Shown one piece after another: positions 1,976 to 55,717 of a stretch of 55,717 nucleotides of DNA. The notes under the pieces were generated by a model. That model did not search any database and was not told the DNA's origin. It was given only the letters and a program-made list of their open reading frames with translations. Origin of the DNA: a virus (Duplodnaviria > Caudoviricetes); the IMG/VR virus record IMGVR_UViG_3300005611_000035, positions 1 to 55,717 of that record. The stretch is one strand, 5' to 3'. The position numbers were made by a program, and so were the translations under genes. Numbering within the stretch: the stretch's first letter is position 1; every line of letters starts with the position of its first letter.

Positions 1976-1998
1976 AAGTATTAAGAGGAGGCACGAAC

Positions 1999-3228
1999 AT
2001 GATGGAACTAGCATTGATCCGTACTCTTATGGATAAAGAGTTCTATGATAATCACAAAGGCATCCGTTGCCCTGATAAGATATTCACCAAGGATGTGCGT
2101 AAGATAAAGCAAACGCTAGACTACGCTATGAATACCTACGAGAAGACTCTGACTCCCTCAGAGCTAGAGGCTTTGTTCTATGCTGGCAATAGTAGTATGA
2201 CTACAGCTAACAAAGAATCGTATCGTGATTTGTTTCACAAGATAGCTAAGGAGAATCCGCTTAACAAAGAGATAGCCAATGACGTACTGTCTAAGTTATT
2301 TCAACAGGTAGTAGGAGAAGAGATAGCCAACCTTGGTTTTGACTATGTGAATGGTACACAGAATACACTAGAGCCGTTGCGTAATCTGATACGTGATTAC
2401 CAAGATGACTTCATGCCTAACCTTAAGATTGATTGGGATGACATGGACATCAACACCCTGCTTAAAGCTAACGACATTCAGTCACAGTGGAAGTGGAACA
2501 TATCATCGCTGCGCCGTAAGGTAGAAGGTATTAGTGGTGGGCATTTGGTTGTTGTAGGTGCACGTCCTAACACAGGTAAGACAAGCTTTCATGCTAGCGC
2601 TATCGCAGGTCCAGATGGCTTTGCCCATCAAGGTGCTAAGTGCATCATCCTATGTAATGAAGAAAGCTATGAACGTGTAGGTGCAAGATACCTCAGTGCC
2701 GCCACAAGCATGAGCATGGAAGAAGTAAAGGCTAACATGGCACAGGCTGGCCTACGCTATGAACCAGTACGTAAGAACATCTTTGTAAAGGATAGCACAG
2801 GTAAAGACATGTCATGGGTTGAGGCTGTAGTAAAAGCATACCAGCCTGACATAGTAGTACTAGACATGGGCGACAAGTTCGCTAACAAGACAAGCGATAA
2901 GTCTGATGTGTATCTTAAAGAGGCAGCTATATATGCACGTAACATAGCCAAGCAATATAAATGTGCAATCATATGGATGTCACAATTAAGTGCTGTGGCT
3001 GAAGGTGTAGTGCGTGTAGATCAGTCTATGCTAGAAGGCAGTAAGACAGGTAAGGCAGCAGAGGCTGACTTGATGATTCTCATCTCTAAGAACAGAGTTG
3101 TTGAAGGACAAGATGATGAAGAGAGTAATCAACGCCACCTTAACATTGCTAAGAATAAACTTAAAGGTGGGTGGCATGGTGTAGTACACTGTGAGTTAGA
3201 CGGTGAGCGGAGTCAGTACCTTGCGTAA
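1999..3228 (+). CDS. DnaB-like (SF4) replicative helicase
   Basis: Walker A GARPNTGKT, VVLD Walker B, MSQL, EADL, IAKNK motifs. Confidence 0.92.
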   Translation: MMELALIRTLMDKEFYDNHKGIRCPDKIFTKDVRKIKQTLDYAMNTYEKTLTPSELEALFYAGNSSMTTANKESYRDLFHKIAKENPLNKEIANDVLSKLFQQVVGEEIANLGFDYVNGTQNTLEPLRNLIRDYQDDFMPNLKIDWDDMDINTLLKANDIQSQWKWNISSLRRKVEGISGGHLVVVGARPNTGKTSFHASAIAGPDGFAHQGAKCIILCNEESYERVGARYLSAATSMSMEEVKANMAQAGLRYEPVRKNIFVKDSTGKDMSWVEAVVKAYQPDIVVLDMGDKFANKTSDKSDVYLKEAAIYARNIAKQYKCAIIWMSQLSAVAEGVVRVDQSMLEGSKTGKAAEADLMILISKNRVVEGQDDEESNQRHLNIAKNKLKGGWHGVVHCELDGERSQYLA

Positions 3229-26254: not shown

Positions 26255-27391
26255 TTAGCTTAGATTGTCAGCAGTTTTAAAGCCGTGATACGTTGTACCA
26301 CCATCGTCTGTGCTGATGGTAAACAAGTCAGTCTCACCATTAGCAGGTGCAGCAGGGGCAGAACCACCAGCCCATTCTATTGAGGTAGGCCATGTGATGG
26401 TGGATGCGGTTGTGGAGTACTGATATACAGTGTCGTTTGTTTCACCAGTGGTGTAGAACTTATCCCCATTATCAGAGAACGCAAGCCCATAGAAGTCCGT
26501 ACCTACTTCAGAGATGGTATAGCTAATACTGTCGTAGCTTGCTGTGGAAACATCCCACGCTGTACTTAGTGTATAAGAGAACACGTTGTTTGTAGTGGTG
26601 TCTGCAATAAACATTCTTAGCCCATCCACACTGAAGTGTAGGCTCTGGGGGTCTGTTGCCTGACTTGTCACACTAAAGCTTATGGAATCATAGCTTGCTG
26701 TGGAAACATCCCAAGCGGTACTTAAGGTGTACTGATATACAGTATCGCTTAAGAAACCAACAACGTACATTTTAGTACCGTCTGGTTTAAAGAAAATACC
26801 CGTTGGCGCTGCTTCTTGCGATGCAACCGAGAAGGATTTACTGGCGTATGACCCCGTAGATACATCATATGCTGTGCCAAGGGTATATTGATAGACCGTA
26901 TCAGTATCAAACCCTACAGCATACAAAGATGCCCCACTGTCCCCTACAAACAGGGCAGTGGGTGCTGTAAGTTGAGAACTAACATCAAGGGACTTACTTG
27001 CGTAACTAGCAGTAGATACATCCCAAGCTGTACTAAGTGTGTACTGGTATATGGCATCATTAATTGCATCTATTGTGTACATTGTAGTACCGTCAGACTT
27101 GAAGAACAAGTCTTCTGGCCTTGGGCCTTGAGAGGAAACCGAAAAACTCTTGCTGTCATATACGGCCCCTGAAATATCATAAGGCGCAACACCACCAGTC
27201 ACCTCTACCTGAAACGACTGCACATCCCCAGCATTGCTGAAGGTGTATGTTGTGTTAGCTGTTAGTGTATCACTGAAGTAGTTGCCTGTGCTAAGATCAA
27301 TGTTGCTGCTAGTGATTGTACCAAGTGTTACCTTAGTGTCAGCACCGATTTGTATAGCATTCTTAACTACAAAATCTTTATTATTTGACAT
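26255..27391 (-). CDS. Fibre-tip paralog B with one beta-propeller insert
   Basis: Same termini as paralog C; repeated YQYTLSTAWDVSTASY blades. Confidence 0.75.
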   Translation of the reverse strand: MSNNKDFVVKNAIQIGADTKVTLGTITSSNIDLSTGNYFSDTLTANTTYTFSNAGDVQSFQVEVTGGVAPYDISGAVYDSKSFSVSSQGPRPEDLFFKSDGTTMYTIDAINDAIYQYTLSTAWDVSTASYASKSLDVSSQLTAPTALFVGDSGASLYAVGFDTDTVYQYTLGTAYDVSTGSYASKSFSVASQEAAPTGIFFKPDGTKMYVVGFLSDTVYQYTLSTAWDVSTASYDSISFSVTSQATDPQSLHFSVDGLRMFIADTTTNNVFSYTLSTAWDVSTASYDSISYTISEVGTDFYGLAFSDNGDKFYTTGETNDTVYQYSTTASTITWPTSIEWAGGSAPAAPANGETDLFTISTDDGGTTYHGFKTADNLS

Positions 27392-27962
27392 CTACTTCAC
27401 CTTCCATAGTTGTCTTTTTACGTTTAGCCCACCAAACCTTCCTAGCTTCGGACTGCTTTCTTTTAGTGGTATCTGAGTGTTTTCGGCCTTTACTTGTGGC
27501 ACTTATCTTTTGTCTTGTCTCTTCTGAAACTTCAACACCGTACCTAGGATTGTTAGAACCTGAGTTATTCTCAGACATAATCTTTAATGTCTCTTCAGAG
27601 TGTTTGCGTCCTGACTGAGACTTAGACATTTTAGCACGAGTCTCTTCAGTAATCTCCCTACCAATACAACCCCTGTTACCCCCAACAACAAGATTTAAAC
27701 AGGTTGGGTCTTCTACTACTCGTTCAGTAACTACAATAGATTCCCAAAGCAAACACTCGTCATACGTACCTAAAAACAAAACATTACGTACCCAATCTTC
27801 AGGGTCTTTACATTCTGTCCTACGTCTACCGCCAAACTTCTTATTAAACAATACACCACTACCTGCGTAGTTGTCCTCTGGACTGCCTTTGTGTATCCCT
27901 CTATAGAACTCTCCAGTAGACTTACGTACCCACTGATAGCCAAACGCCTCGTGTTCCATCAT
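27381..27962 (-). CDS. GIY-YIG (Seg-like) homing endonuclease with NUMOD3 repeats
   Basis: GYQW..FYRG..YAGSG; repeated HSEET/EETRAKMS/EETRQKIS motifs. Confidence 0.8.
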   Translation of the reverse strand: MMEHEAFGYQWVRKSTGEFYRGIHKGSPEDNYAGSGVLFNKKFGGRRRTECKDPEDWVRNVLFLGTYDECLLWESIVVTERVVEDPTCLNLVVGGNRGCIGREITEETRAKMSKSQSGRKHSEETLKIMSENNSGSNNPRYGVEVSEETRQKISATSKGRKHSDTTKRKQSEARKVWWAKRKKTTMEGEVDVK

Positions 27963-38545: not shown

Positions 38546-40670
38546 TACCTGAGAATCCTTGTTCTCCTGGTGCTGGTGCTACTCCTGTACCTATAGTTCC
38601 GCCACCTGCTCCTGTCTGATCTTGTGCTACCGCACCTGCTGGTAATGCTGCACCTTCTTGTCCTACTGGCGCTGGGCCACCCGCAGCTTCAGGCGGTGGT
38701 GGAGCAGGTTGTTGGAACCCTTTAAGAATCTCAGCTTGGATAGCTGCATCCTGCATAGAGTTAGTAACTTTATTAGGATCAAGGTCCATGCTCTTAGCGA
38801 TCTCACGAATGATGTAATCCATCTTAGCAAAGGGTGCTAGTGCTGGGTTCTGTACTACACCCAAGAATTGCATTAGGCGCTGGGAGCGTACTTCGTTAGC
38901 CATCAAGCTCTCAGTACCGTTAGCCATAACCTCTAGGTCACCCTTGATGTCTTCATCATAGTCAAACTGCATGTTAAATGCGAAGAATGCACGACCCATA
39001 GGTGCTAATAGATAGTCATCTACATTTTTAACAACAGATCGTATAGAGCCATTAGCTGCAGACATAAGCATACTAATACCAGAAGCAGTCCTTCCCACTC
39101 CCGATACACCCGTCTGACCGTGTGCAAACGATGGAAAACCCGTGGATTCATCAGCTAATACCCTTGCTTTATCAAATAGTTGCATATTCTCAGCAGCTAC
39201 ATTGGGGAACTTGGTACCAAAAATGGCCTGTCCTGGTGCGCCGCCTTGTCTACGGAAGACCTTGCCTGGGTACACAGATAAGTCTTGGCCTGGTACTAGG
39301 TTGGTTTCATCTATCTCAATCAGTAGATTACCAGATAATACAGCATTGTCAACAGCCATTCGCATGAAACCGTTCATCAATGTTTGTGTATCATCCATAT
39401 TCTCTGCAATACCTACACCAAAGAAGCTGTATGGGTTATGCTCGTATGGTACAGCATAATAAGGAATACGTGATGGCTTAAATGGATTTAGTACACAACG
39501 GATGATCTCACCGTTAACAATCCATATATTAGCATTTACTTCTGGTAGATCACGTAAGTCACGTGGTATGTTAATCCCATTCTCTTCTAGTAAATCTGTA
39601 TCAACAAAGCCCCAGAACTCTAACACCTCCCAGCGCTCACTGTCAGAAGGACGTGTATCATCATCCTCCATCTTCATTTCCCAGTGCTTACGCACATAGT
39701 CAGAACCTTTATCAATGGCTAGCTGAATTGAGTCATCAATAAAGTAAGGACGCCCACGTAGAGCACGTAGCTGATTACGGGACATCTTGTGACGCTCTAC
39801 TACATACTCTGCGTCATCCATGCTTGTAGATTCAGGATCAGGATAAAAGTTCCACACAGATACGTGATTAGTAGAAGGAACAGTCTTGATTAAAGGATCG
39901 TAGTCACCCTCTTCATTCCAGTTAGGATACTCTTTATCTACAGCAAACGGACCCTTCATAACACCCGTGCCTAGCAATGCCATCTCAAATGCCATGCTAC
40001 GTAAATGCTTTGATGCTCCGCTTTCATTTAGTTGATCGTGTATTTTCTTTTCCATCTTCTTAGCTGCTACCATAGCAGGATGGAAGGTAACGCTTGTAGG
40101 TGTAGTGCCATCACCCTCAATAATCTTGTCGCTTACAGGGGTTAGCTTTCTTTCAAGGCCACCCAAGCGCTTCATAAGAGAAGTACGTGTTTCACCAGGT
40201 TGTAGCTTTGTATCAGGACCAATCAAGTAAGGCTTAGGTAATTCTGCGCCAAAGGCTTCTGCTAGTGCTCCTTGCGCTGGGCCAGCATTAGGATCAACGT
40301 TAATGTGTACGGATTCTGCTACACCATCAGGTAAAACAGAAGGTTCTACAGATAAAGGAAACTTGTTGTTTCCAAAGAGTACATCTACAATCTGCCCATA
40401 CGCTGCAAGAGTTTTTGTCTTAGTAACCTTGACAAACATCTTAGATTTTTCACTAGACGTAAACTGTACCTCTGGACCATATATGCCACGGTAGTTTCGA
40501 TAAGAGCGTAGCCAGCGTTCCTCATCACCTAGTCGCGCATCCTCTGCACGTTTAAAGCGATCATTTACGAATGTTACAATGCCGTTCAAGCTAGCAAACA
40601 TATTGTCTTCACTAGATTCTGCAGCTACTACTTCGTCTGTCTCAAAGGAAAGATCGTCTATTTCTGCCAT
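38535..40670 (-). CDS. Portal protein
   Basis: 711 aa, GTGVMKGP, FYPDP, GRTASGISML; downstream of TerL. Confidence 0.9.
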   Translation of the reverse strand: MAEIDDLSFETDEVVAAESSEDNMFASLNGIVTFVNDRFKRAEDARLGDEERWLRSYRNYRGIYGPEVQFTSSEKSKMFVKVTKTKTLAAYGQIVDVLFGNNKFPLSVEPSVLPDGVAESVHINVDPNAGPAQGALAEAFGAELPKPYLIGPDTKLQPGETRTSLMKRLGGLERKLTPVSDKIIEGDGTTPTSVTFHPAMVAAKKMEKKIHDQLNESGASKHLRSMAFEMALLGTGVMKGPFAVDKEYPNWNEEGDYDPLIKTVPSTNHVSVWNFYPDPESTSMDDAEYVVERHKMSRNQLRALRGRPYFIDDSIQLAIDKGSDYVRKHWEMKMEDDDTRPSDSERWEVLEFWGFVDTDLLEENGINIPRDLRDLPEVNANIWIVNGEIIRCVLNPFKPSRIPYYAVPYEHNPYSFFGVGIAENMDDTQTLMNGFMRMAVDNAVLSGNLLIEIDETNLVPGQDLSVYPGKVFRRQGGAPGQAIFGTKFPNVAAENMQLFDKARVLADESTGFPSFAHGQTGVSGVGRTASGISMLMSAANGSIRSVVKNVDDYLLAPMGRAFFAFNMQFDYDEDIKGDLEVMANGTESLMANEVRSQRLMQFLGVVQNPALAPFAKMDYIIREIAKSMDLDPNKVTNSMQDAAIQAEILKGFQQPAPPPPEAAGGPAPVGQEGAALPAGAVAQDQTGAGGGTIGTGVAPAPGEQGFSGNVA

Positions 40671-41173
40671 TGCTTAGTATCCCAACTATTATGTTTATTA
40701 TGTTTAGCTAGATTCATGCTTGCTGGCAGAATAGCTAAGTTCCACGGAACATGAAGTCCACATACATCTACACCTTGTAAGGGTATTATATGATCCACGT
40801 GGTGTGCTTTTCCTGTACGTTCTGTTATTTTAGCACAGGCTTTGTATATCGTATTTATATCATTTAACTGTTTCTCAGTCAACCAAGAAGGTGTAGCTTT
40901 TAGTTTAGCGGCTCTGCGTAAGTTAATACTAGAGTTGTATTGGCCTTTATTCTCTAAGTAATGCTTCCTTCTATATGCTTGCCTGTACTCTTTATTATTA
41001 GCGTACCAATCTGAAGCCCTTTTAATAGCTGCTTCTTTATTGTTAGTGTAATGAGACTTGCTTTTGTTAGCACTACAGACCTTGCAATAAGAAGTATGTC
41101 CATCCTTTTTAGACTTGTCTTTATAGAACAAATCTAAAGACTTAGAGTTATTACACTTAATACATTTCTTCAT
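40658..41173 (-). CDS. HNH homing endonuclease between terL and portal
   Basis: CIKC..CKVC, ATPSWL, HVDHIIPLQG..CGLHVPWNL. Confidence 0.88.
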   Translation of the reverse strand: MKKCIKCNNSKSLDLFYKDKSKKDGHTSYCKVCSANKSKSHYTNNKEAAIKRASDWYANNKEYRQAYRRKHYLENKGQYNSSINLRRAAKLKATPSWLTEKQLNDINTIYKACAKITERTGKAHHVDHIIPLQGVDVCGLHVPWNLAILPASMNLAKHNKHNSWDTKQWQK

Positions 41174-41177
41174 TGTA

Positions 41178-42767
41178 TCAATAGCCAAAAGTTGAGTCTG
41201 ACATCTGAAAACCTGCATTCTGCTGAGTGGGCGAAAAGTCCCATATTGAGCTACGGGGTCTAGTCATTATACCATACCTTAATGCATCATATAAGTGGTC
41301 TTCTGCATTTGTGTCTACGTCTTCAGGGTTCTTCTTGTCTAAGGGTATTGAAGGTATCTGTGCTATAGTGTTAGTGCAGGTGGAAAAGAACACAAGGCGA
41401 GGCTCTTCAGTGAACTCATCCACCTGCAAACGGCGGTGTATCTCATTCTTACCTGCAACCCTTGACCCACGAGAGCGATCTGATGGACGCCATCTGCATC
41501 CCTTCATATTCATTTGCTCTGCTAGTGAAGGGCCAGTGTCACCTCTTTTATGCCAGAGGGAAGAGTCCAACACGCCGTACCTAATAGTTCCATCTTTATA
41601 TTCTGCTTCTAGTATCATATCAGCTAAATCTGTAGCCGTAACCTTAGAACAATATAACTCTCTGTAGACAACCAACTGCTCACTTGGTGTGACAGCGAAC
41701 CATAGTACTCCTGTATAGGAGCCGTAACCATAGTCGCAAGCTCTAAACTTAGGCCAGGAGTCAGGGATGTCGATAGGCTCAACAACGTGTATACTTCTGT
41801 TAAATTCAGGGAAAGCTGCTCCTTCGTTAATATCCCAGTTACCCTCTAGTAGTTGCTTGCGCTGGTGCTCTGGAAGCGAGAGTAGCATTGCTTCGTAGTC
41901 ACCAGTGTCTGCTAGATAAGGGTTGTCAAACAGACTAGCAGGAATAAACCTACGTTTAAATAGGGGTTGCCCTTCACGACTATGACCAACAGGAAACCTA
42001 ATAGTCTCACCTGTTTCTATGTTTGTAGCCCAAAAGGATTTACCTGAAGGCGCTGGGTCAATAAACATTTTTTTAACCCACTGGTGCCCATTTCCCCCGG
42101 GATTGGTTGTAGCCCTCATGTACAAGCCTAGCTCTGTTGATGCAGACCTCAAGCGGCTTCGCATGTAGTCCCACGCATAGGGGCTAGGCCACTGCGTAAG
42201 CTCGTCAAAGCCTATCCAATTAAACGCTTGACCTTGGTAGCGAGTGACGTCCATGTCTTTGTCGAGATAGGACATCCATAGTCTGCCCCCTCTGGGTGAT
42301 ACCCATTGAGACTTTCGTTCAGACCATTTGATATTGGGTATAGCCTTGGGATAAAGCTCTTGCGATTTTTGAATAAGTTCACGTAGTTCTTCCGTTGTAT
42401 GTCGTACAAGTAGACCACTAAAGTTAGGGTCATTTAAACCGTGGAGTGGGTCAGCTAACATGGCATATGACTTACCGCCACCTGCTGCCCCTCCATAAAG
42501 TACTTCCCTTTCAGATGCGCTTAGGAAGTCTGTCTGTGGACCTGGGTTAGGCTTAAACACTACTTCTTGTGCAGTGTCAACATCAAACTCAGGTGCTTTT
42601 ACTTCAGCAGGAATACGCTCTACAAGTATAGGCTCACTCTTCTGGGGGTATGATTCTGTATGCGCCGATACTTTCTTCTTCGAGCTTCTTGATTTCCTGT
42701 AACGTCTTTTCGAGCCTCCTGGCAAGCTTGCGTTTAATTGAAGCTGCTTTCTTACGTCTTCGCTCAA
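41178..42767 (-). CDS. terL: Terminase large subunit (start uncertain)
   Basis: YGGAAGGGKS Walker A, FDELTQ, ATTNPGG, DYGY, DHLYDALRY. Confidence 0.93.
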   Translation of the reverse strand: MSEDVRKQLQLNASLPGGSKRRYRKSRSSKKKVSAHTESYPQKSEPILVERIPAEVKAPEFDVDTAQEVVFKPNPGPQTDFLSASEREVLYGGAAGGGKSYAMLADPLHGLNDPNFSGLLVRHTTEELRELIQKSQELYPKAIPNIKWSERKSQWVSPRGGRLWMSYLDKDMDVTRYQGQAFNWIGFDELTQWPSPYAWDYMRSRLRSASTELGLYMRATTNPGGNGHQWVKKMFIDPAPSGKSFWATNIETGETIRFPVGHSREGQPLFKRRFIPASLFDNPYLADTGDYEAMLLSLPEHQRKQLLEGNWDINEGAAFPEFNRSIHVVEPIDIPDSWPKFRACDYGYGSYTGVLWFAVTPSEQLVVYRELYCSKVTATDLADMILEAEYKDGTIRYGVLDSSLWHKRGDTGPSLAEQMNMKGCRWRPSDRSRGSRVAGKNEIHRRLQVDEFTEEPRLVFFSTCTNTIAQIPSIPLDKKNPEDVDTNAEDHLYDALRYGIMTRPRSSIWDFSPTQQNAGFQMSDSTFGY

Positions 42768-43051: not shown

Positions 43052-43423
43052 TTACTCGTTTTTACCTTCCTTTGATGGCAGTATAAATACGCCACCACTA
43101 CTCGACCCCACATCGATCTTATCAACTTTACCAAGCCCTGCACGATCAAGTAAATCTTTTGCTGCCGCCATCTTATCACGTATACCTAGTTCAGTAGGAT
43201 CGTACAAAGCATTAGTCATAGCCATTGCAGCTTTAGGTGCTGTACGCGCAAACCATGTACGTGTTTTATCCGCTATTTCATCCTTAAGAGATTCAACAAT
43301 ACTTGTAGTAGATGAACCCTCACCATACCCTGCAAGTTTCTTAGCTGCGACAACATCTCCGTTGGCCTCATCAAATAAGACCTCTAAAAACTTTTGTTGC
43401 TTTTCTGTTAACTGTCTTGCCAT
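43052..43423 (-). CDS. terS: Terminase small subunit
   Basis: LTEKQQKF..A.KLAGY N-terminal HTH typical of TerS; AAKDLLDRAG. Confidence 0.75.
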   Translation of the reverse strand: MARQLTEKQQKFLEVLFDEANGDVVAAKKLAGYGEGSSTTSIVESLKDEIADKTRTWFARTAPKAAMAMTNALYDPTELGIRDKMAAAKDLLDRAGLGKVDKIDVGSSSGGVFILPSKEGKNE

Positions 43424-43881
43424 TACCTAGTTCCTAACCACACAAATCCAAACAAAGCGCCTGAACAAAGTATAAACAATATAATACCTAAAGTCCACTC
43501 TATTATTTTTTGTTTAATTTCCATTTGCCTGTGTTCGTGTTCTCTCTTCTGCTTACGTAAGTCTGCTTCTATCTCTAGTATTTCTTGCCACTTTGATGGG
43601 CCATACATAACCGATATGTAGTCTTTTAGCTCCTGCCTCATGGAAGCAGCCTTCTGTTTGGCTGCAAAGATTTCCATAGCTTGAGCCTGTACTCCACCAC
43701 CCAGTGCTTTGTACCACGGTGGCTTTTGGTTTTGGCGATCTGCAAACTCTAAGTCTGCTATTGCACCTGCCCACTTAGAAAGCTGACCGCCCATATCCTG
43801 CAGATCTTTGCCAACGGCTATGCCTTTTTTTAAAGCGTTGAAGGCAATAGTGGCCCCGCTAATTATAGTAAATGGGTCCAC
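43423..43881 (-). CDS. Membrane-anchored coiled-coil protein
   Basis: MDPFTII N-terminus, C-terminal transmembrane segment. Confidence 0.65.
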   Translation of the reverse strand: MDPFTIISGATIAFNALKKGIAVGKDLQDMGGQLSKWAGAIADLEFADRQNQKPPWYKALGGGVQAQAMEIFAAKQKAASMRQELKDYISVMYGPSKWQEILEIEADLRKQKREHEHRQMEIKQKIIEWTLGIILFILCSGALFGFVWLGTR

Positions 43882-43902
43882 AAGCCTCTCCCTCTTGCTA
43901 GA

Positions 43903-44115
43903 CTATTCTTCGTTTACAACTCTACGTATGTCGCCACGGTTAATCCCTATGTCTCTCAGATCTCTGTCTGACATAGCGTATAGTTGCATCATGGCAATAC
44001 GCCGATTCGCTTCCTTCTGCCTTGCTTCAATTAAAGCTTTAAACACTTCAACCAACCAAGTCTTAAAATTAACGGCCCACTTTGATGATTCAGAAATTAT
44101 TAGTTCCATGTCCAT
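43903..44115 (-). CDS. DUF1127 (YjiS-like) small protein
   Basis: R..QLYAMSDRDLRDIGINRGDI signature. Confidence 0.85.
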   Translation of the reverse strand: MDMELIISESSKWAVNFKTWLVEVFKALIEARQKEANRRIAMMQLYAMSDRDLRDIGINRGDIRRVVNEE

Positions 44116-46130: not shown

Positions 46131-46417
46131 GATGTGTAGCCCCCACCTTTAGCTTTATACTCTTTAGCTACCATCTGAGCTTTACGTGCTGACCACTGAC
46201 CAGGCTTACCACCCTTGTCACCTGCTTTATACTTTGCAACAAGCTTCTTACGCATAGTAGGCTTAGTGTAGTTACCTGCAGCGTTTACTGTGGAACCACC
46301 CTTACTGTAACCACTGGCATAAATAGCTCTACCTTGCTTTTCAGCAGCAGCCTTGGTCTTGTAGACTTTACCAGTCTTACCCCAGCGATAACCACCTTTT
46401 ACTTTTTGTACAGGCAT
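46127..46417 (-). CDS. Small basic protein (DUF5872-like N-terminal half)
   Basis: YTKPTMRK..KGGKPGQWSARKAQ..YKAKGGGY. Confidence 0.65.
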   Translation of the reverse strand: MPVQKVKGGYRWGKTGKVYKTKAAAEKQGRAIYASGYSKGGSTVNAAGNYTKPTMRKKLVAKYKAGDKGGKPGQWSARKAQMVAKEYKAKGGGYTS

Positions 46418-46614
46418 TACGTACTAACTCCCGCTTTAACTTTGTGGCAGCTAGGTATAGCAATCATGCCTTGCTTCGTTAGCGCCTCACCAAAAGCTAT
46501 AACATCATCTATACAAGCTTGCTCTGTAGCAAAAGGCTGACTCTTTATCATAACCTTACAAGAGAATACTGTAGGGTCAGAACAAGCTAACATAATTGCA
46601 AGCCACATCACCAC
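46417..46614 (-). CDS. Small Cys-containing secreted or membrane protein
   Basis: Hydrophobic N-terminus ending in LAC. Confidence 0.5.
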   Translation of the reverse strand: MVMWLAIMLACSDPTVFSCKVMIKSQPFATEQACIDDVIAFGEALTKQGMIAIPSCHKVKAGVST

Positions 46615-46877
46615 TTCACTTTATCTGCCCAGTATGCTGCTGACATCTTTCCTTTAGATATATTCTTAGCATGGCGAGCCTTAAAAGACTTGCGCCTAGC
46701 TTTTTGTTTAGCTGTAGAGGGAGACTTTCCTGCTCCACTAACACCTTGCTGACCAAAGCGGATAATCTTTTCTTTGCCATTCTCACAAGCCTTTACTACG
46801 TGTGACTTAGTTTTATGCTTAGGAGTACGCTTAGGTTTGTTACAAGCCATACTCTTCTTGGATACAGGTTTAGCCAT
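46608..46877 (-). CDS. Small basic protein
   Basis: IIRFGQQG..RRKSFKARH..SAAYWA. Confidence 0.65.
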   Translation of the reverse strand: MAKPVSKKSMACNKPKRTPKHKTKSHVVKACENGKEKIIRFGQQGVSGAGKSPSTAKQKARRKSFKARHAKNISKGKMSAAYWADKVKW

Positions 46878-47127
46878 ACTCTCGTTCTCGCTCTGGGTCT
46901 AACACTTCATCCCTACTGAGATGCCCCTCTAAATACATAGCTCTCTCTACGTGATCTAACGTGTACCACTCACCAGTGCGGGAGTATATAGCTTCTCTAA
47001 CGTAGAACACATCTGACTTAGGTATGTGCACCTTACGCATAGCAGTAGGGTCATTGTTAGCAAGAGCATCATAGAAGTCTGTTAAAACATCTTCACTTGC
47101 ATATAGTTGTACAGGTTTGTTAGGCAT
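46870..47127 (-). CDS. Hypothetical protein, first conserved gene of the late arm
   Basis: ATG at 47127; HIPKSDVFYVR. Confidence 0.6.
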   Translation of the reverse strand: MPNKPVQLYASEDVLTDFYDALANNDPTAMRKVHIPKSDVFYVREAIYSRTGEWYTLDHVERAMYLEGHLSRDEVLDPEREREYG

Positions 47128-47133
47128 TGTCAA
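47103..47133 (-). promoter_or_regulatory. Promoter TTGACA-N16-TACAACTAT
   Basis: Matches the recurrent architecture; overlaps the start of the 46870 ORF. Confidence 0.55.
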
Positions 47134-47157
47134 GAAAAAAGATACATGTAAATACGT

Positions 47158-47301
47158 AAAAAAAGTACGTACTGCAAGTAGCTACAGGCTACACTGTAAA
47201 CGTTACAGAGAGGAGGGAGAGGAGACACACCGTTACAACATAACTGTATCTACTCACAGTACGTAGTCACATAGTATTATTACTTATTATGTTTTGTGAC
47301 T
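47158..47301 (-). ncRNA. Putative small RNA with an anti-Shine-Dalgarno loop
   Basis: Upstream TTGACA-N18-TATACT, 5' hairpin, long stem enclosing GUGUGUCUCCUCUCCCUCCUCUC, 3' U7 tract. Confidence 0.6.
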
Positions 47302-47307
47302 AGGTGT

Positions 47308-47337
47308 AGTATAACATTAATGTTAAAACTATGTCAA
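47308..47337 (-). promoter_or_regulatory. Sigma70-like promoter of the putative sRNA
   Basis: TTGACA-N18-TATACT preceded by TGT. Confidence 0.6.
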
Positions 47338-47373
47338 GTACAAATATTAATATTATTACTAATATAAGTAAAT

Positions 47374-47456
47374 TATTATTATAGTTACTATAGTATGTTT
47401 TAACTATTATAGTTTTTACTATTATTATAGTTACTATAGTATGTTTTAACTATTAT
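47374..47456. repeat. AT-rich 37-bp direct repeat x2 (period 46)
   Basis: TATTATTATAGTTACTATAGTATGTTTTAACTATTAT at 47374 and 47420. Confidence 0.85.
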
Positions 47457-47527
47457 GTGTAACTACTCTTAAGTGTTATTACTTAATAAAGTTTAAACTA
47501 TTATGTTATACTTACCCCCTTTCCCCC

Positions 47528-47558
47528 ATAGTTATACAAATTGTCAAGCCCCTGTCAA
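47528..47558 (-). promoter_or_regulatory. Promoter TTGACA-N16-TATAACTAT
   Basis: Matches the recurrent architecture. Confidence 0.6.
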
Positions 47559-47619
47559 GTCACTTTTCTGTAAACCTATACTTAATAGTCAGGAAAGTTA
47601 TGCTTTTTAGCCATACCCC

Positions 47620-48381
47620 CTAGTTGTTAGACTTGAATACGTTAACATAACCAGGCAGAACCTGTAAGTTCCAAGGCACATGTAACCCACAGATGTTCTC
47701 ACCTCTTAGTGGTACTATATGATCTACGTGATAGTCTTCACCAGTAATAGACCTACAGTCACGCATTAGTTCATACGTATCTGCTATCTGTTGTTTATGC
47801 TCTTTGCTTAACCATTTAGGTGTAGCTTGTCTGTTGCGGCGATCACGTAATGCGTTATTGCGTTTCTTACGGTGCCTACCTTCAGGTGTGTTTTCATAGT
47901 GTCTATTGTTAGTACGCCTACAGGTTTTACATTTAGCGTAGGGGACTTTGTAAGTACTACCGTCTTTACGCTTACGGTTACGCATGTGGTACTGGGATAA
48001 AGGCTTCTCTTCTTTACAGGTACTACATGTTTTAACACCTGTTGCTAAAGCAGCCTCACGTTCTTGTTCTGCTTTCTTGCGCCATTCTTCTTGTATCTTT
48101 TCTATAGCACCGCTTTCTATATACTCTGCATACCAAGCTTCCCACTTTGCTTTGCCAGCTTCCTGCCTCTCTTCGGGAGAAAGTTTTGGTTTACGTACTC
48201 TATTTAGCCATTTCTCCCGTGTTAAGGCTATTTTAGAGCGATTCTTAGAAGAATATTCTCTTATGTACTCTCTTCTACAAGCCTTACATCTACCTGTAGG
48301 TACTTTATCGCCGTTAGCTTTAGTACGCTTATCAAACTTGTCTAACTCTTTTGTTTCATTACATACTGTGCAGCTTTTCAT
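47620..48381 (-). CDS. HNH homing endonuclease with two Cys4 modules
   Basis: AAGGAGG RBS before ATG 48381; ATPKWL..HVDHIVPLRG..CGLHVPWNL. Confidence 0.88.
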   Translation of the reverse strand: MKSCTVCNETKELDKFDKRTKANGDKVPTGRCKACRREYIREYSSKNRSKIALTREKWLNRVRKPKLSPEERQEAGKAKWEAWYAEYIESGAIEKIQEEWRKKAEQEREAALATGVKTCSTCKEEKPLSQYHMRNRKRKDGSTYKVPYAKCKTCRRTNNRHYENTPEGRHRKKRNNALRDRRNRQATPKWLSKEHKQQIADTYELMRDCRSITGEDYHVDHIVPLRGENICGLHVPWNLQVLPGYVNVFKSNN

Positions 48382-48402
48382 GTTTTCCTCCTTGGTGTGC
48401 AT

Positions 48403-48433
48403 ATAGTTATACTCATGTGTATACATATGTCAA
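48403..48433 (-). promoter_or_regulatory. Promoter TTGACA-N16-TATAACTAT of the HNH gene
   Basis: Matches the recurrent architecture. Confidence 0.65.
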
Positions 48434-48707
48434 TAGGGGGGTGTGACACTTTAAAAAAGCTCGTGTGTGTATTTGTACATATACGTATTACGTACCCACC
48501 CCGTATGGCCCCCGTGCCGCATCGACAGATATAGCTAAGCTGCTGAAAACATTGAGCTTTCTACTTCTAGTTGTGTCCCGGATTTAAATACAATTTTATT
48601 CTAGCTAGTAAATATACTGCTATGTTGTTGTTTTTATTATGTTTTACTAGTGATATGGCTTCACTAGTTTTGTATATATGTAAAAAAAGCATATCCCTAT
48701 TTTGGCT

Positions 48708-48801
48708 TGTGATCACAAACAAAAGAGACGTGCACGAAACACATTTATGTGATCACAAAATAGTAATACTCTTTTTTGTCTACTCATTATTTGTGATCAC
48801 A
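48708..48801. repeat. Three copies of the palindrome TGTGATCACA
   Basis: At 48708, 48748 and 48792 in the non-coding divergence region. Confidence 0.85.
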
Positions 48802-48966
48802 TTTCCAGTACAACCAATGCGATACCTTAGCACAACCTGAAGTAGAGCTTATATAGTAATACTGTGCATGTTGTGCTTTTAAAGCTAGACTTATCTTACT
48901 CACTACTAAAAACATTAATGAAAACAATAGCTTATAAAAAAGTTGCATAAAAAGTAAAAAAAGTGC

Positions 48967-48996
48967 TTGCAATATTCAAAACAATCTGTGCATAGT
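48967..48996 (+). promoter_or_regulatory. Early sigma70-like promoter TTGCAA-N18-CATAGT with an A-rich upstream tract
   Basis: A-tracts upstream, TGTG before the -10; first promoter of the plus arm. Confidence 0.5.
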
Positions 48997-49002
48997 TATT
49001 AC

Positions 49003-49450
49003 ATCGAAAGCGACAAGAAACAAACGCACAAGATAAGACCTAGCAAAGTTTCAGCGTCCTAAGCGATCAGCACTCTTGAAAGAGACTTGCACAAACTAAA
49101 AACTGAAAGACTAAACGCAACACAAAGGAGACACACGAACCGGACACACGATAGATACTGACACACCTTGTATCGACGTTATTTGACATAGCAGCCCTGG
49201 CTGACTGGGTGAGGTGCGCCCGGCTGCAACCTATACTGTGACGGTATGACAGTATAATCCTTGCTAGGATAAGGTATAGACTTAAGCGTACCCTTGGTGG
49301 CAAACACATCTGACAAATGTGCTACCTACCTTGACCGATAGGTGGCAAACGGCGTGACGTGACATCATATAGATGTAGTCTCACAATGGGCGTCCAAGGC
49401 TGAAAGGGTGCGTGTGATCTAAAACGTAGCACGATTAATGCAAAAAACTT
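49003..49450 (+). ncRNA. Putative large structured non-coding RNA or early leader
   Basis: No plus-strand ORF of 60 aa or more in the ORF track; at least 7 helices including long-range pairs. Confidence 0.5.
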
Positions 49451-49510
49451 TCTTGACAGATAGGCGCTATATGTGCCTATTCTCAAGACAGTTAAACGAG
49501 AGGTGAGACA

Positions 49511-50131
49511 ATGCAACAAGTACACATTAGCAAAATGACGGGTAAGCTTGACGGGTTCAAAGCCATCAGCACCAACACAATCACCAATGATTACTGCAAC
49601 AAGCAACACATCAAAGGCAAAGCCACGGGTGACAATATATGTGGTGACTGTTACAGCCACGCTATGCTCAATACGTACCGCAAGAATATGCAAGCTGCGT
49701 TGCAACGTAATAGCGATTTATTGTCCAGTAGACCATTGGAACCGCAAGAGATACCAAGAGTGACGGACGCAATGTTCCGCTTCAATGCACACGGTGAGCT
49801 TATCAATATGCAACACCTAGAAAATCTCATGGCAATAGTGCAAGACAATCCTTGGTGTACCTTTGCCTTATGGACTAAGCGAGTTGACCTAGTGTTCCGT
49901 TGGCTACGCAACAATGACAAGCCAACAAACTTAAACCTGATATACTCAAACCCTAAGAAAGGACACATCATGTCCAAGCCACCAAAGGGATTTGACAAGA
50001 CGTTTAACAATGTACAAGAGGATGAATTTGTTGACCGACAAAACTGTACAGGACAGAAATGCAAAGATTGTCGCTTGTGTTATACTTTCAATGACACAAG
50101 AACCATTGTTGAAAAAGTTAAAAAGTATTAA
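49511..50131 (+). CDS. Gp88-like Cys-rich protein
   Basis: C..C..CY, FRFNAHGEL, FALWTKR, C..KCKDCRLCY. Confidence 0.65.
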   Translation: MQQVHISKMTGKLDGFKAISTNTITNDYCNKQHIKGKATGDNICGDCYSHAMLNTYRKNMQAALQRNSDLLSSRPLEPQEIPRVTDAMFRFNAHGELINMQHLENLMAIVQDNPWCTFALWTKRVDLVFRWLRNNDKPTNLNLIYSNPKKGHIMSKPPKGFDKTFNNVQEDEFVDRQNCTGQKCKDCRLCYTFNDTRTIVEKVKKY

Positions 50132-50656: not shown

Positions 50657-50844
50657 CGCTTAGAGAATTGACACAAGCTTTGGCAAATCATGATGACGTG
50701 CGCTGGGGCAATGATGGCTACCGTGTACAGTGGGAACATTTACCTGATGGACCTGCTATCACCATAAGATGCACAGCCAATGGTTTTGGTGGTGCGATGG
50801 CTAATAGTGAAATGAAAGACTGCTACATTAAGGAGACACAATGA
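50653..50844 (+). CDS. Early hypothetical protein
   Basis: GGAG RBS, ATGA overlaps. Confidence 0.6.
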   Translation: MTLRELTQALANHDDVRWGNDGYRVQWEHLPDGPAITIRCTANGFGGAMANSEMKDCYIKETQ

Positions 50845-51145: not shown

Positions 51146-51351
51146 TGGACGCTCCGTTAGCAATACAGATATGTGAACAGCTAGTCATGGCTGAACACGA
51201 TGAAGAAGTAGAAGCTTGGCAATATCTGATCGACACAGGCTTAGCGTGGCAACTACAAGGGTGGTACGGACGTACTGCCCAGCGCCTAATCAACGATGGG
51301 TACTGTACGTATACAGATAGAGCAGATGAGAGGAGACAAAGTAATGACTAA
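51142..51351 (+). CDS. Early hypothetical protein
   Basis: AWQYLIDTGLAWQLQGWYGRTA..LI..G motif. Confidence 0.65.
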   Translation: MMDAPLAIQICEQLVMAEHDEEVEAWQYLIDTGLAWQLQGWYGRTAQRLINDGYCTYTDRADERRQSND

Positions 51352-53199: not shown

Positions 53200-54110
53200 A
53201 ACTACCCAAGAAGTCAGCCACAGTAGGTGACATCGTTAGCTTTTACTTACGCAGCGATCACTTCGCTAGGCTGTCAGGCGCTACACAAAAGCAATACGAG
53301 CATCACTTAGATGCTGCACTAGATACACGTGTCTTAGGTAAACGCATAGAAGACTATCGTGCTCGTTCACTTAAGGCACAGCATACTAACTTAGCCTATC
53401 AAAAGTGGCTAGACAAAGGCATACGTACAGCTAACTACCGCAAGGCTGCACTGAGTACAGCATGGAAGTATTGCATGAGGCTAGACATCATGGAGAACGA
53501 TCCTGTTAGACTTATCAAAGCTGAGACAGACACGCCACGCAAGGTACGCTGGACACGGGAGCAGGTACATACCTTCCTTAACACTGCATACTCTGACTTC
53601 AAGTGGCGTAGCATAGGGCTAATCGTACACATGGCATACGATCTAGCTCAACGTGTAGGTGATATGCGTCTTCTGACATGGGATAAAGTAAACCTTGATG
53701 CCCAGCGCATAGACCTAACACAAAGTAAGCGTGGAGCAGACGTTCATTTACCTATCTCAGAGGCGCTGACAGCTATGCTACAGGCGCAGAAGGAAGACTT
53801 TGGGTTTCAACCCTATGTAGCACCCAAAACCAAGCCTGTAGCGGGATCTTATGCGCCGTACCCAGTAGACCAAATTGATGGTGCAATCAATGAAGTCAAG
53901 GAAGCTGCAGGACTACCAAAGAATATCACTGCTATGGATCTACGCCGTACTGCTATCACTGAGATGGTAGAGGGTGGCGCAGACTTAGCTCAAATCATGC
54001 AGGTCAGTGGTCACGCAGATCCTGGATCAGTTAAACCTTACCTAGTAAACACATTCAGCGGTGCTAAGAACGCATTATCCAAGAGGCATAAACTTAATGA
54101 AGAACATTAA
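53193..54110 (+). CDS. int: Tyrosine recombinase / integrase
   Basis: AQRVGD (R), QSK (K), MDLRRT, SGH, KPY (Y); GAGGAG RBS. Confidence 0.88.
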   Translation: MVKLPKKSATVGDIVSFYLRSDHFARLSGATQKQYEHHLDAALDTRVLGKRIEDYRARSLKAQHTNLAYQKWLDKGIRTANYRKAALSTAWKYCMRLDIMENDPVRLIKAETDTPRKVRWTREQVHTFLNTAYSDFKWRSIGLIVHMAYDLAQRVGDMRLLTWDKVNLDAQRIDLTQSKRGADVHLPISEALTAMLQAQKEDFGFQPYVAPKTKPVAGSYAPYPVDQIDGAINEVKEAAGLPKNITAMDLRRTAITEMVEGGADLAQIMQVSGHADPGSVKPYLVNTFSGAKNALSKRHKLNEEH

Positions 54111-54885
54111 GAACTACATAGAAGGTCTTGATCTTAAAGAAGGAACACAGCATCGTGCTACCTGTCCTTGGTGTGGTGGTAAGAACACATTCACTGCTAC
54201 AAAGACAGACGGTACTGTGGTCTACAACTGTTACAAGGTTAGCTGCCAGCTAAAGGGTGCTACCAGTACAGGCATGACAGCAGAGGAGATCATAGGTAGA
54301 TTACGTCCTCACGAAAACAAAGAGGAGCAAGAGAAAGAGTTACTTACTTTGCCTGAGTATGTGGTTACACCCAGCGCAGAGCATACTCTACATAAGAAGT
54401 TTGTACAACGGTGGGACTTAGAGTATGAGAGCCTGATGTATGACGTGAAAGATAGACGTATTGTCTTTCCTATTCGTGACAAGGGTAGATTGATAGACGC
54501 AGTAGGACGTGCATTAGACGGGGCTATACCTAAGTGGTATAGATACTCTGGTATAGCTGATGTATACAAACGTACAATAGGCAAGCCCGGTGGTGTAGTT
54601 TTAATAGTTGAGGATGTCATAAGTGCAATCACAGCAGCTAAGCTTTATCCTGGTTTGACAGGCATGGCTATCCTTGGTACATCATTAGGTGCTGCACAAA
54701 TGCAACACTTGGATGGTTTTTATAGGGTAATCGTAGCGCTTGACCCTGATGCTGCACACAAGACCTTGACATACAAGAGAGAGATAGAGGCATGGACAGG
54801 GTTAGACACAAGAGCGTTAAGACTTGACGACGACTTAAAGTATAAGGTACACTCTGACATTGTAAAACTTAAGGAGATGTTATGA
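54097..54885 (+). CDS. DNA primase, allele 2
   Basis: Near-identical to 116-904 except for the zinc finger-TOPRIM linker. Confidence 0.85.
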   Translation: MKNIKNYIEGLDLKEGTQHRATCPWCGGKNTFTATKTDGTVVYNCYKVSCQLKGATSTGMTAEEIIGRLRPHENKEEQEKELLTLPEYVVTPSAEHTLHKKFVQRWDLEYESLMYDVKDRRIVFPIRDKGRLIDAVGRALDGAIPKWYRYSGIADVYKRTIGKPGGVVLIVEDVISAITAAKLYPGLTGMAILGTSLGAAQMQHLDGFYRVIVALDPDAAHKTLTYKREIEAWTGLDTRALRLDDDLKYKVHSDIVKLKEML

Positions 54886-55634
54886 TTAAGGCAACATACA
54901 TAGATCACATGGGCAGTGACTTGTCTGTAGTAAACTCTGCTAGAGTTAGCTTTGGTAAAAAGTCTGACTGGGTGCCACGTGTACACAATGGAGAAGCTAA
55001 AGTTCTACAACAGAAAGACAATAAGCTAATCTGGTATCTGGCAGAGCATAAACACATGTCACCCTTTGGTCACTGCTTTGCAAGCTTCCATGTCAAGGCT
55101 CCTATCTTTGTAGCTAGGCAGTTGGTGAAGCATAAGTTCCTACGCTGGAACGAGATAAGTCGTAGGTATGTGGACGAAGAGCCTGAGTTTTATGTGCCTG
55201 ATGTGTGGCGTGGACGTAGTGAAGACAAGAAGCAGGGCAGTGAGGGTGAGGTGAAGATTGAAGACTATATGATTGAACTAGCCTTCTTAAAACCAAACAC
55301 AGGTAAAGCTGTAGCAGCCTCTAAAGAGCCTCACAATGCATGGAATACATACGATCAGATAGAGAACGATTACGGAGGATTGATGGTTTTATATACAGGT
55401 CTTCTTGACATGGGAGTAGCACCAGAGCAAGCACGTATGGTCTTGCCACAGTCTATGATGACAGAGTGGTACTGGTCAGGTAGCCTTGACGCCTTCGCTG
55501 ATATGTGTATATTAAGATGTGCTTCTGACACACAACAGGAGACACAAGAGGTAGCCAATCAGATCAGTGTAAAGATGCACAAACTATTTCCCGTGTCGTG
55601 GATGGCACTATGTAAAGGAAGAAACAATGAGTAA
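54882..55634 (+). CDS. thyX: ThyX, allele 2 (longer loops)
   Basis: Same motifs as 901-1530 with two expanded loops. Confidence 0.9.
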   Translation: MIKATYIDHMGSDLSVVNSARVSFGKKSDWVPRVHNGEAKVLQQKDNKLIWYLAEHKHMSPFGHCFASFHVKAPIFVARQLVKHKFLRWNEISRRYVDEEPEFYVPDVWRGRSEDKKQGSEGEVKIEDYMIELAFLKPNTGKAVAASKEPHNAWNTYDQIENDYGGLMVLYTGLLDMGVAPEQARMVLPQSMMTEWYWSGSLDAFADMCILRCASDTQQETQEVANQISVKMHKLFPVSWMALCKGRNNE

Positions 55635-55717
55635 AGATGCAGGACTGATAGGCGTAGAACAAGTAGAAGAACACGAAGACGGTGGTGCAACTTACAAGTT
55701 TCACATGGATGCACATG
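55627..55717 (+). CDS. Hypothetical protein, partial (copy of 1527-1787)
   Basis: MSKDAGLIGVEQVEEHEDGG..., truncated by the window end. Confidence 0.7.
   Translation, partial: MSKDAGLIGVEQVEEHEDGGATYKFHMDAH

Follow-up and report, generated by a model that had tools for sequence, protein, structure and literature searches.

Introduction

An unpaired C-rich loop motif that pairs with the G-rich Shine-Dalgarno (SD) sequences of several mRNAs is a feature of the small RNAs (sRNAs) AbcR1/2 and RsaE. Among phages, lambda produces a short transcript, the 6S RNA, which runs from the strong promoter PR' to the terminator tR' directly upstream of the morphogenesis and lysis genes, and the sRNA StxS of Stx phages reportedly acts in trans too. 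A study on Rhodobacter sphaeroides (PMC8034643) describes the CcsR (cuckoo) RNAs, in which two hairpin loops each carry the anti-SD sequence CCUCCUCCC. According to that study (PMC8034643), the CcsR RNAs have a linked DUF1127 gene, which encodes CcaF1, a protein that binds them, the arrangement is limited to Rhodobacteraceae and some Rhizobiales, and cuckoo/CcsR1-4/NfeR1 make up the Rfam family ar14. Here we describe an RNA element on the minus strand (47158-47301) of the virus record IMGVR_UViG_3300005611_000035, a complete IMG/VR record of 55,717 nucleotides that was analysed over its whole length (the window) and is kin of the HMO-2011-type roseophages CRP-603 and CRP-2. The element is real: it is a structured RNA that is conserved and specific to one strand, has a promoter of its own, ends in a U-rich tail and exposes an accessible loop, rich in C and U, that resembles an anti-SD sequence. 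It is associated with GGAGACA ribosome-binding sites (RBSs) on the strand carrying the replication genes. The reading that we favour, with moderate confidence, is that the unit is a trans-acting anti-SD sRNA damping the translation of replication-strand genes that have GGAGACA-type sites.

The phage RNA resembles the cuckoo/CcsR RNAs in holding a CU-rich anti-SD motif in a hairpin loop, in its Rhodobacteraceae setting and in its genomic link to a DUF1127 protein. The original prediction, made from the sequence of the window, had drawn this analogy, which proved apt through the DUF1127 gene and through the exact CCUCCUCCC motif that occurs once per RNA in the loops of group B, and only of group B, among the groups A to G of relatives. 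The analogy did not extend to family membership or architecture: no ar14 covariance model matched the phage RNA, and this RNA combines an A/U-rich hairpin 1 with a stem of about 33 bp that carries a single loop of 13-29 nt, whereas CcsR has two short hairpins with the motif in each. The window loop reads CUCCUCUCCCUCCUCUC, without an exact CCUCCUCCC and with an invariant core of its own, UGU(G/A)UCUCC. The RNA is moreover phage-borne and has a sigma-70-type promoter, and the DUF1127 gene lies 1.7-3.8 kb off, in contrast to its adjacent position in the CIN1 subgroup of ar14. Judged by covariance model and architecture, the phage RNA falls outside ar14.

With lambda 6S RNA and StxS the element shares the layout of a short promoter-to-terminator unit directly upstream of phage morphogenesis and lysis genes. 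It differs in that no Q-type antiterminator was detected here, in that the loop is kept rather than the terminator, and in that sister phages are without the unit; the layout of a lambda-type late leader is present, but a Q-like gene was not found among the ORFs scanned. As in AbcR1/2 and RsaE, the unpaired C-rich loop motif is complementary to G-rich SD sequences, but those RNAs are chromosomal, with other folds and sequences, and the phage RNA had no Rfam match to them.

Structure of the RNA element and its promoters

The predicted features of the unit and of the region directly upstream are as follows.

47308-47337, minus strand: promoter P2 of the RNA, with TTGACA at 47337-47332, an 18-nt spacer, TATACT at 47313-47308 and TG before the -10 box
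47313-47324, no strand assigned: palindrome AACATTAATGTT in the P2 spacer, repeat family D2, recurring after P1 in relatives
47158-47301, minus strand: predicted small RNA of about 143-145 nt, its start deduced from the -10 position and its end being the U7 tract
47265-47301, minus strand: hairpin 1, with a 7-bp stem AGUCACA/UGUGACU (47301-47295 with 47271-47265) and an A/U-rich loop of 23 nt
47166-47264, minus strand: hairpin 2, a stem of about 33 bp bearing the CU-rich loop
47204-47228, minus strand: apical loop GUGUCUCCUCUCCCUCCUCUCUGUA, 25 nt, CU-rich, with the invariant core UGUGUCUCC
47158-47164, minus strand: U7 tract following the stem and one C, a terminator-like tail
47531-47558, minus strand: promoter P1, with TTGACA, a 16-nt spacer and TATAAC, which would read through the RNA

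The minus-strand promoter TTGACA-N18-TATACT of the original prediction proved to be real. P2 matched the consensus at 11/12 positions and ranked first among 12 promoter-like sites in 46500-50000, and a P2-like -35/-10 pair was present in 65/67 distinct upstream sequences of relatives. The predicted 5' hairpin, long stem and U7 tract were likewise confirmed, the minimum free energy (MFE) of the 152-nt stretch being -42.6 kcal/mol compared with -30.1 +/- 3.7 for 200 dinucleotide shuffles, none of which folded as low (z = -3.4). The mean unpaired probability of the loop GUGUCUCCUCUCCCUCCUCUCUGUA was 0.95. An inner CTGTAA/TTACAG hairpin, which had also been proposed, has to give way to a helix of UUAUGUUGUAAC with GUUUACAGUGUAG that is backed by covariation. 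The unit had been described as about 145 nt long and free of open reading frames (ORFs); the length stands, but a 32-codon GTG frame at 47228-47130, which is not conserved, overlaps the unit.

A covariance model of the element (R1) gave 165 bits for the minus strand of the window as opposed to 34 bits for the plus strand, and this was its sole forward match in the genome. At the sequence level the unit carries the marks of a bacterial-type sRNA, namely its own promoter and a hairpin/U7 terminator-like end. Searches against all 4227 Rfam families gave no match, either at the gathering score over the whole window or at E values up to 10 on 47100-47620, and a scan at E values up to 10 of eight loci from seven groups of relatives gave no ar14 match. 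The palindrome AACATTAATGTT looks operator-like and a regulator might bind there; its position in the P2 spacer and its repetition after P1 in relatives suggest that firing is regulated.

Conservation and covariation in relatives

Retrieval with the protein encoded downstream yielded 475 IMG/VR relatives, the best 80 of which were kept and gave 67 distinct upstream sequences of at least 200 nt. Retrieval from IMG/VR with a 15-nt loop word, which is biased to the loop, yielded 28 homologous loci among 58 matches (24 distinct, including the window). All 67 distinct upstream sequences showed the same order of promoter, hairpin 1, long hairpin with CU tract, U-rich tail, AU-rich SD-less spacer and TTGACAATG. 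Folding by MFE alone placed a hairpin of 60-115 nt in 54 of these 67 sequences, with a loop of 13-29 nt consisting of at least 79% C+U, and the unpaired probability of the loop in relatives was 0.88-0.97. The stem has 33 pairs in the window and 20-39 in relatives, and its base occurs in at least 10 wholly different types (ACGUACUG, ACGUGCUG, ACGUGUGUAG, ACGUGUCGUG, ACGUGUAGCG, GCGUGUUAUA, GCGUAUUACA, AAGUGUUACA and GUGCUAUAGC, with GUACGUGGCA in CRP-207). The loop behaves in the opposite way to these variable stems, its core UGU(G/A)UCUCC being invariant in a global alignment that anchors on the core. At least five U residues were found in the 9 nt after the stem in 47/54 sequences, and the weakest tails were those of group C.

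Alignment of the 21 group A sequences with plain MAFFT, followed by RNAalifold, revealed 35 pairs, none of them broken and three changed on both sides, together with many G-C/G-U or U-A/U-G exchanges. On the opposite strand the wobble pairs of group A would turn into C-A mismatches, so it is the RNA of the minus strand on which selection acts. The covariance model built from the group A alignment recovered groups B, C, D, E, F and G as well as CRP-207. The covariation set comprised 41 forward matches with E < 9e-7, 38 of them distinct, from groups A-C plus one group E sequence. In this set, whose alignment was fitted to the model and so favours the structure, 98.1% of 1294 cells were standard pairs and 27/35 pairs had changed on both sides. 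None of 500 shuffles reached any of the five measures, and sliding the 3' partners reduced pairing to 20-43%. Hairpin helix 1 was paired in 99.2% of cells, with 3/7 pairs changed on both sides, and helices 2-4 had 24/28 pairs changed on both sides. Folded independently, the distant groups D-G and CRP-207 gave the same fold with unrelated stem sequences, and the structure is therefore supported apart from the model-fitted alignment. Conservation and covariation of the stem and CU loop, which the original prediction had put forward as a check in relatives, were borne out by these sequences.

One variant locus (L083, 446-597, on the same contig as L025) has lost the 3' arm of the long stem, seen as a 16-nt alignment gap, but still has its promoter and loop.

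Association with GGAGACA ribosome-binding sites

The heptamer GGAGACA, which is the complement of the invariant loop core, was counted among GGAG-type sites, defined as GGAG located 4-11 nt before an in-frame start. In the discovery set, GGAGACA made up 26/118 such sites on the replication ('early') strand of nine RNA-bearing genomes and 3/99 in five genomes without the RNA (Fisher p = 3e-5), while the late strand had 2/51 in RNA-bearing genomes and 1/39 in genomes without the RNA. ACA was the only one of 45 trinucleotides after GGAG that differed strongly, and p was still 1e-4 when group A was reduced to a single representative. The 26 GGAGACA genes belong to 20 protein families, of which the helicase contributes four genes, the methyltransferase two, two further families a pair each, and 16 are singletons.

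The replication set was drawn from ten further near-complete IMG/VR records, one of which (G008) was left out as it has two copies of the first gene, only one with the RNA. The early strand had GGAGACA at 11/67 sites in the five RNA-bearing genomes and at 3/70 in the four non-bearing ones (p = 0.024), and the late strand of the bearing genomes at 0/32. Both sets combined gave 37/185 for the early strand of bearing and 6/169 for that of non-bearing genomes (p = 1.1e-6); within the bearers the early strand, with 37/185, was set apart from the late strand, with 2/83 (p = 5e-5). A rank test per genome, 12 against 9 genomes, gave p = 1e-4. Two sites of CRP-207 read GGAGACAU(G) and match the second loop motif of that phage, CAUGUCUCC.

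The hosts of CRP-2, CRP-603 and CRP-207 are all Rhodobacteraceae. CRP-2, which bears the RNA, and CRP-1, CRP-9 and CRP-13, none of which does, were isolated on one and the same host strain, and a preference of the host ribosome is therefore no cause of the GGAGACA difference.

Candidate target sites and pairing with the loop

Sites complementary to the loop that are candidate targets, or that lie apart from any gene start, are listed below.

51328-51338, plus strand: candidate target, methyltransferase RBS, GAGAGGAGACA followed by AAGUA-AUG; best RBS duplex, -26.1 kcal/mol
50831-50840, plus strand: candidate target, 59-aa ORF with AGGAGACACA directly before its ATG
1985-1994, plus strand: candidate target, helicase RBS GAGGAGGCAC, pairing with the core over 10 bp, one of them G-U
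43885-43894, minus strand: candidate target, RBS GAGGGAGAGG of the membrane-protein gene 43423-43881, before terS
49126-49136, plus strand: orphan perfect complement of 11 nt, AGGAGACACAC, the longest outside the RNA gene, in a stretch without ORFs that lies upstream of the plus-strand genes

The plus-strand loop complements that had been reported at 50831, 51328, 49126 and 50177 all exist, and so do the shorter matches listed before the helicase, 52584 and 52714 ORFs. The complement at 49126 had been placed in the early leader; it is present but precedes no ORF, and could be a decoy, a leader target or a chance match. A GAGGAG match claimed before the integrase could not be found before the integrase start in the program-made ORF list. 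Allowing at most one mismatch, AGGAGACACAC occurred six times, always on the plus strand (47220, 49126, 50177, 50831 and 1439/55537), where 47220 is the RNA gene's own complement and 1439/55537 a single site doubled by the overlapping ends of the window; the shuffle expectation was 1.09 and none of 100 shuffles reached six. The orthologous helicase RBS reads GAGGAGACAC in CRP-603 and CRP-2, GAGGAGACA in the related genome G001 and AGGAGACAU in CRP-207.

Pairing energies were computed with RNAduplex between the loop and the -30 to +12 windows of 66 genes, with 300 composition-matched loop shuffles as controls. Plus-strand genes paired slightly better with the loop than minus-strand genes (p = 0.05). 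A comparative prediction covered 67 genes in eight genomes, each with its own loop, and own and swapped loops were compared by permutation on 28 orthologous groups. The strongest conserved pairing was that of the RBS of the 43423-43881 group, with a mean of -22.6 kcal/mol over six genomes, and the helicase came next with -18.2. The z-score of -5.85 that puts the 43423 group on top reflects its long purine tracts.

Proposed mode of action

The RNA would be made from its own sigma-70-type promoter and would end at the hairpin and U tract. Its long covarying stem holds out a single-stranded CU-rich loop made of the core UGU(G/A)UCUCC and CCUCC-type repeats, which resembles the 3' end of 16S rRNA. 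In trans, the loop would pair with SD regions, with a preference for the GGAGACA-type sites of the replication genes on the opposite strand, for example those of the helicase, the methyltransferase and many small ORFs. Such pairing would block ribosome entry and turn the replication genes down when the strand of the structural genes is transcribed. The discrete transcript, its action in trans, the repression, its timing and any help from Hfq or the DUF1127 protein are steps that we infer. It is doubtful that the RNA goes further and is a phage version of the cuckoo/CcsR-CcaF1 module of the host family (an anti-SD RNA with a DUF1127 RNA-binding protein), serving as a temporal switch that would mask co-evolved GGAGACA sites when the structural strand fires and may hijack the host CcsR regulon.

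A number of results weigh against the sRNA reading. The original prediction had named beforehand, as an outcome that would speak against it, target pairing no better than that of controls, and duplex energies were indeed no better than those of shuffled or swapped loops. The best duplex, of -26.1 kcal/mol, stood against -23.3 +/- 2.3 for shuffled loops, 13% of which equalled it, and mean energies were equal. Loop swapping between genomes weakened no pairing in the 28 groups after correction for multiple testing (p = 0.004 at best, 0.027 for the 43423 group and 0.69 for the helicase). As energies were equal for shuffled and swapped loops, any CU-rich loop would serve at the energy level. The evidence on the claimed complementarity to early-gene RBSs is mixed: the enrichment of GGAGACA in RNA-bearing phages and the six near-perfect 11-mers speak for it, and the duplex energies do not support it. 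The specific early genes that had been singled out as targets, the ORF at 50841 and the methyltransferase, are poorly conserved among relatives.

Further points on the same side concern the counts and the transcript. The GGAGACA statistics ignore kinship, and the RNA-bearing phages may be one clade; they also depend on rough gene calls by a greedy longest-ORF caller, which was applied uniformly. With G008 (0/13) counted as bearing, the replication set becomes 11/80 against 3/70 (p = 0.053). Of five metatranscriptome runs that covered small shares of the window, four were compared with it, and their assembled contigs, which cannot show ends or strand, gave no sign of a discrete transcript; cover lay mostly in 46300-46970, and one contig of 218 nt on the element (47231-47445) crosses P2 and stops at the loop. 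Many group A relatives, and group C as well, have a weak U tract. Finally, the element lies inside P1 transcripts, in the leader of the downstream operon, and a role in cis is therefore possible.

Alternative explanations

The last point leads to a cis-acting leader or attenuator of the structural operon, which we regard as somewhat unlikely. Transcripts from P1 and P2 would stop at the hairpin and U tract unless termination is overcome, on the pattern of lambda PR'-6S RNA-tR', and the short RNA would be a by-product or double as a regulator, as is reported for StxS. The unit indeed stands ahead of the entire 35-kb minus-strand block as its first upstream feature, P1 reads through it from upstream, a terminator-like tail follows the stem in most groups, and the stretch from the U tract to the first gene has no further good promoter, so that downstream expression must cross the hairpin. 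Yet no antiterminator family (Q, N or similar) was detected in 71 ORFs with PHROGs or in 28 small ORFs with Pfam, although small proteins of unknown family could fill that role. The element is missing from sister phages whose operon is laid out in the same way, so the operon can do without it. The strength of the U tract is poorly kept and the loop is invariant, the reverse of what a pure terminator would lead one to expect, and the enrichment of GGAGACA on the other strand is left unexplained. The same enrichment, together with the invariant CU loop, the dedicated promoter and the U tract, also goes unexplained if the unit is an RNA processing or stability element with an incidental loop, which we consider very unlikely. 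The stem of about 33 bp in the operon leader would then serve for cleavage by RNase III or for stabilising the 5' end, a role for which the RNase III sites of the T7 early leader are a precedent, and which is in keeping with the unusual length and near-perfect pairing of the stem and with its position in a 5' leader downstream of two promoters.

It is also unlikely, if less so than a processing element, that the RNA is directed at proteins or at the host, with the CU loop as a platform or decoy for S1, Rho (as a rut-like YC-rich site), Hfq or the DUF1127 protein, or with the RNA as a CcsR/cuckoo mimic acting on host mRNAs. The 9-nt core is invariant, yet shows no target-specific co-variation, and a DUF1127 protein is encoded in the same unit in 8/10 genomes searched; the group B loops with exact CCUCCUCCC point in the same direction, as does the binding of CcsR RNAs by the DUF1127 protein CcaF1 in Rhodobacter, described in PMC8034643. 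Against this stand the lack of an ar14/cuckoo match in Rfam at E values up to 10, the single large loop on a long stem in place of two small hairpins, and the presence of DUF1127 in CRP-1, which has no such RNA. These explanations and the favoured one of a trans-acting anti-SD sRNA are not mutually exclusive.

The DUF1127 protein, the first downstream gene and sister phages

PHROG scans indicated that the genome consists of two divergent arms, the RNA unit being the first feature of the minus-strand structural arm.

49.5 kb to the end and on into 1-12.4 kb, plus strand: arm with genes for methyltransferase, integrase, primase, ThyX, helicase, DNA polymerase, exonuclease, RNR and PhoH
47127 down to 12667, about 35 kb, minus strand: arm with about 12 small unknown genes, then terminase, portal, capsid, tail and lysis genes
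46870-47133, minus strand: first gene on the structural strand, encoding a protein of 85 aa from no known family, with its ATG at 47127, TTGACA (47133-47128) directly before the ATG and no SD
43903-44115, minus strand: DUF1127 small protein of 70 aa, encoded 3 kb downstream of the RNA within one transcription unit with it; Pfam PF06568, E = 6e-9, 35.9 bits (cut-off 23.3)

PF06568 was found in 8 of the 10 related genomes searched (the window, CRP-207, CRP-603, G002-G005 and CRP-1) and was not found in the other two, HMO-2011 and G001, the latter being 74% complete. Seven of the eight RNA-bearing genomes searched have it, at 3 kb from the RNA in the window rather than adjacent, and so does CRP-1, which is without the RNA. 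Strict co-occurrence of DUF1127 and the RNA was ruled out by CRP-1 and by G001, in which no DUF1127 was found, and this also counts against the sRNA reading; the link is non-exclusive and suggestive.

The product of the first gene had no Pfam or PHROG match and fell only into unnamed clusters, below 0.9, of the protein atlas. TTGACA adjoins the start codon of this gene in 67/67 distinct relatives, none of which has an SD, and it also stands before the ATG in 74/74 CRP-1-type loci and in HMO-2011, all without the RNA. Taken as a -35 box, it is followed merely by a weak -10 inside codons 6-8. The possibility that TTGACAATG provides the stop codon (UGA) of an upstream ORF for translational coupling was rejected, since mostly just three open codons, without a start codon, precede the TGA. 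The absence of an SD would fit read-through transcripts that escape their own anti-SD loop, a form of self-immunity.

The first gene, with TTGACAATG and a P1-like promoter upstream, is also present in HMO-2011, CRP-1 and CRP-345, but the CU-rich hairpin is missing there. CRP-9 and CRP-13 have the first gene, and both the hairpin and the TTGACAATG start are missing. The covariance model found no credible match in HMO-2011, CRP-9, CRP-13 and CRP-345 (the single hit, in CRP-13, had E = 0.43; CRP-1 was outside this search), and neither the CU tract nor the core motif occurred in any of 74 CRP-1-type IMG/VR loci with at least 300 nt upstream. As these sister phages share the operon layout and lack the element, the operon works without it. 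Its own promoter and tail give the element the look of a gene that was inserted into the leader in one sub-lineage. The 58.6-kb IMG/VR record G008 (L257-L259) has two diverged copies of the first gene, at 57400-57806 and 2944-3135 (both minus strand), with the RNA upstream of one only; its ends overlap at 83% identity, and either the assembly is chimeric or this phage has two leader modules.

Other features of the window

P1 is kept in CRP-2 (as TATAAT), CRP-603 and CRP-207. Its transcripts would start with GGGGGAAAGGGGG (47526-47514, minus strand); GGGGGtaaGGGGG is found there in groups A-C and GUAGCAGUAGCAG instead in groups D-G. Long-range pairing of the loop with this purine-rich transcript start was considered and dropped, the G box being limited to groups A-C and replaced by GUAGCAGUAGCAG in D-G. 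Between P1 and P2 lie direct repeats (47374-47456), two perfect 37-nt copies at a spacing of 46 nt and a degenerate third copy, in whose place relatives have other AT-rich repeats.

A gene of the HNH/endonuclease VII type (268 aa, 47620-48426, minus strand) is located between the conserved upstream block and P1 and is missing there in CRP-2 and CRP-603; the window has related HNH genes at 40658-41218 and 27381-27962. The block at 48440-48520 (plus strand) is kept in all groups, about 450-560 nt upstream of the first gene in relatives. On the minus strand it shows G-runs, ccac, G-runs, tacgttatacgtatat and cacacacGGGGttttt, and it might be a terminator or a genome-end signal. The palindrome TGTGATCACA has four copies within 100 nt (48701-48802) of the divergent control region and is present in CRP-2 and CRP-603 too; these copies resemble operator sites.

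The ends of the record overlap, 1-938 with 53981-54918 at 93% identity and 1315-1620 with 55413-55717 at 92%, and duplicate the primase and ThyX genes. Since the overlaps are only 93% and 92% identical, they may not be a clean terminal repeat, and the record may be a concatemer or two variants that were assembled together. No tRNA or tmRNA was found in the window.

Significance

According to PMC9038755, HMO-2011-type phages are a viral group that dominates in the sea and is distributed globally; the main text of that paper nowhere uses the words non-coding, intergenic, promoter or DUF1127. The one title found in the literature on roseophages and sRNAs concerned a Vibrio phage, and among those on DUF1127 and phages, considered as titles only, none was about a phage DUF1127. 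The element would be a new covariation-supported RNA family, absent from Rfam, and the case that it is a CU-rich anti-SD riboregulator, phage-borne and with a fold of its own, is about evenly balanced. The cultured pair of CRP-2, which bears the RNA, and CRP-1, which does not, on the same host strain, FZCC0023, allows a direct test. If the favoured reading is true, the element would offer a clear example of how a phage sets the timing of its own gene expression, through an anti-SD RNA that acts in trans and matching RBSs in its early genes, and it would tie phage regulation to the little-understood DUF1127/CcaF1 proteins.

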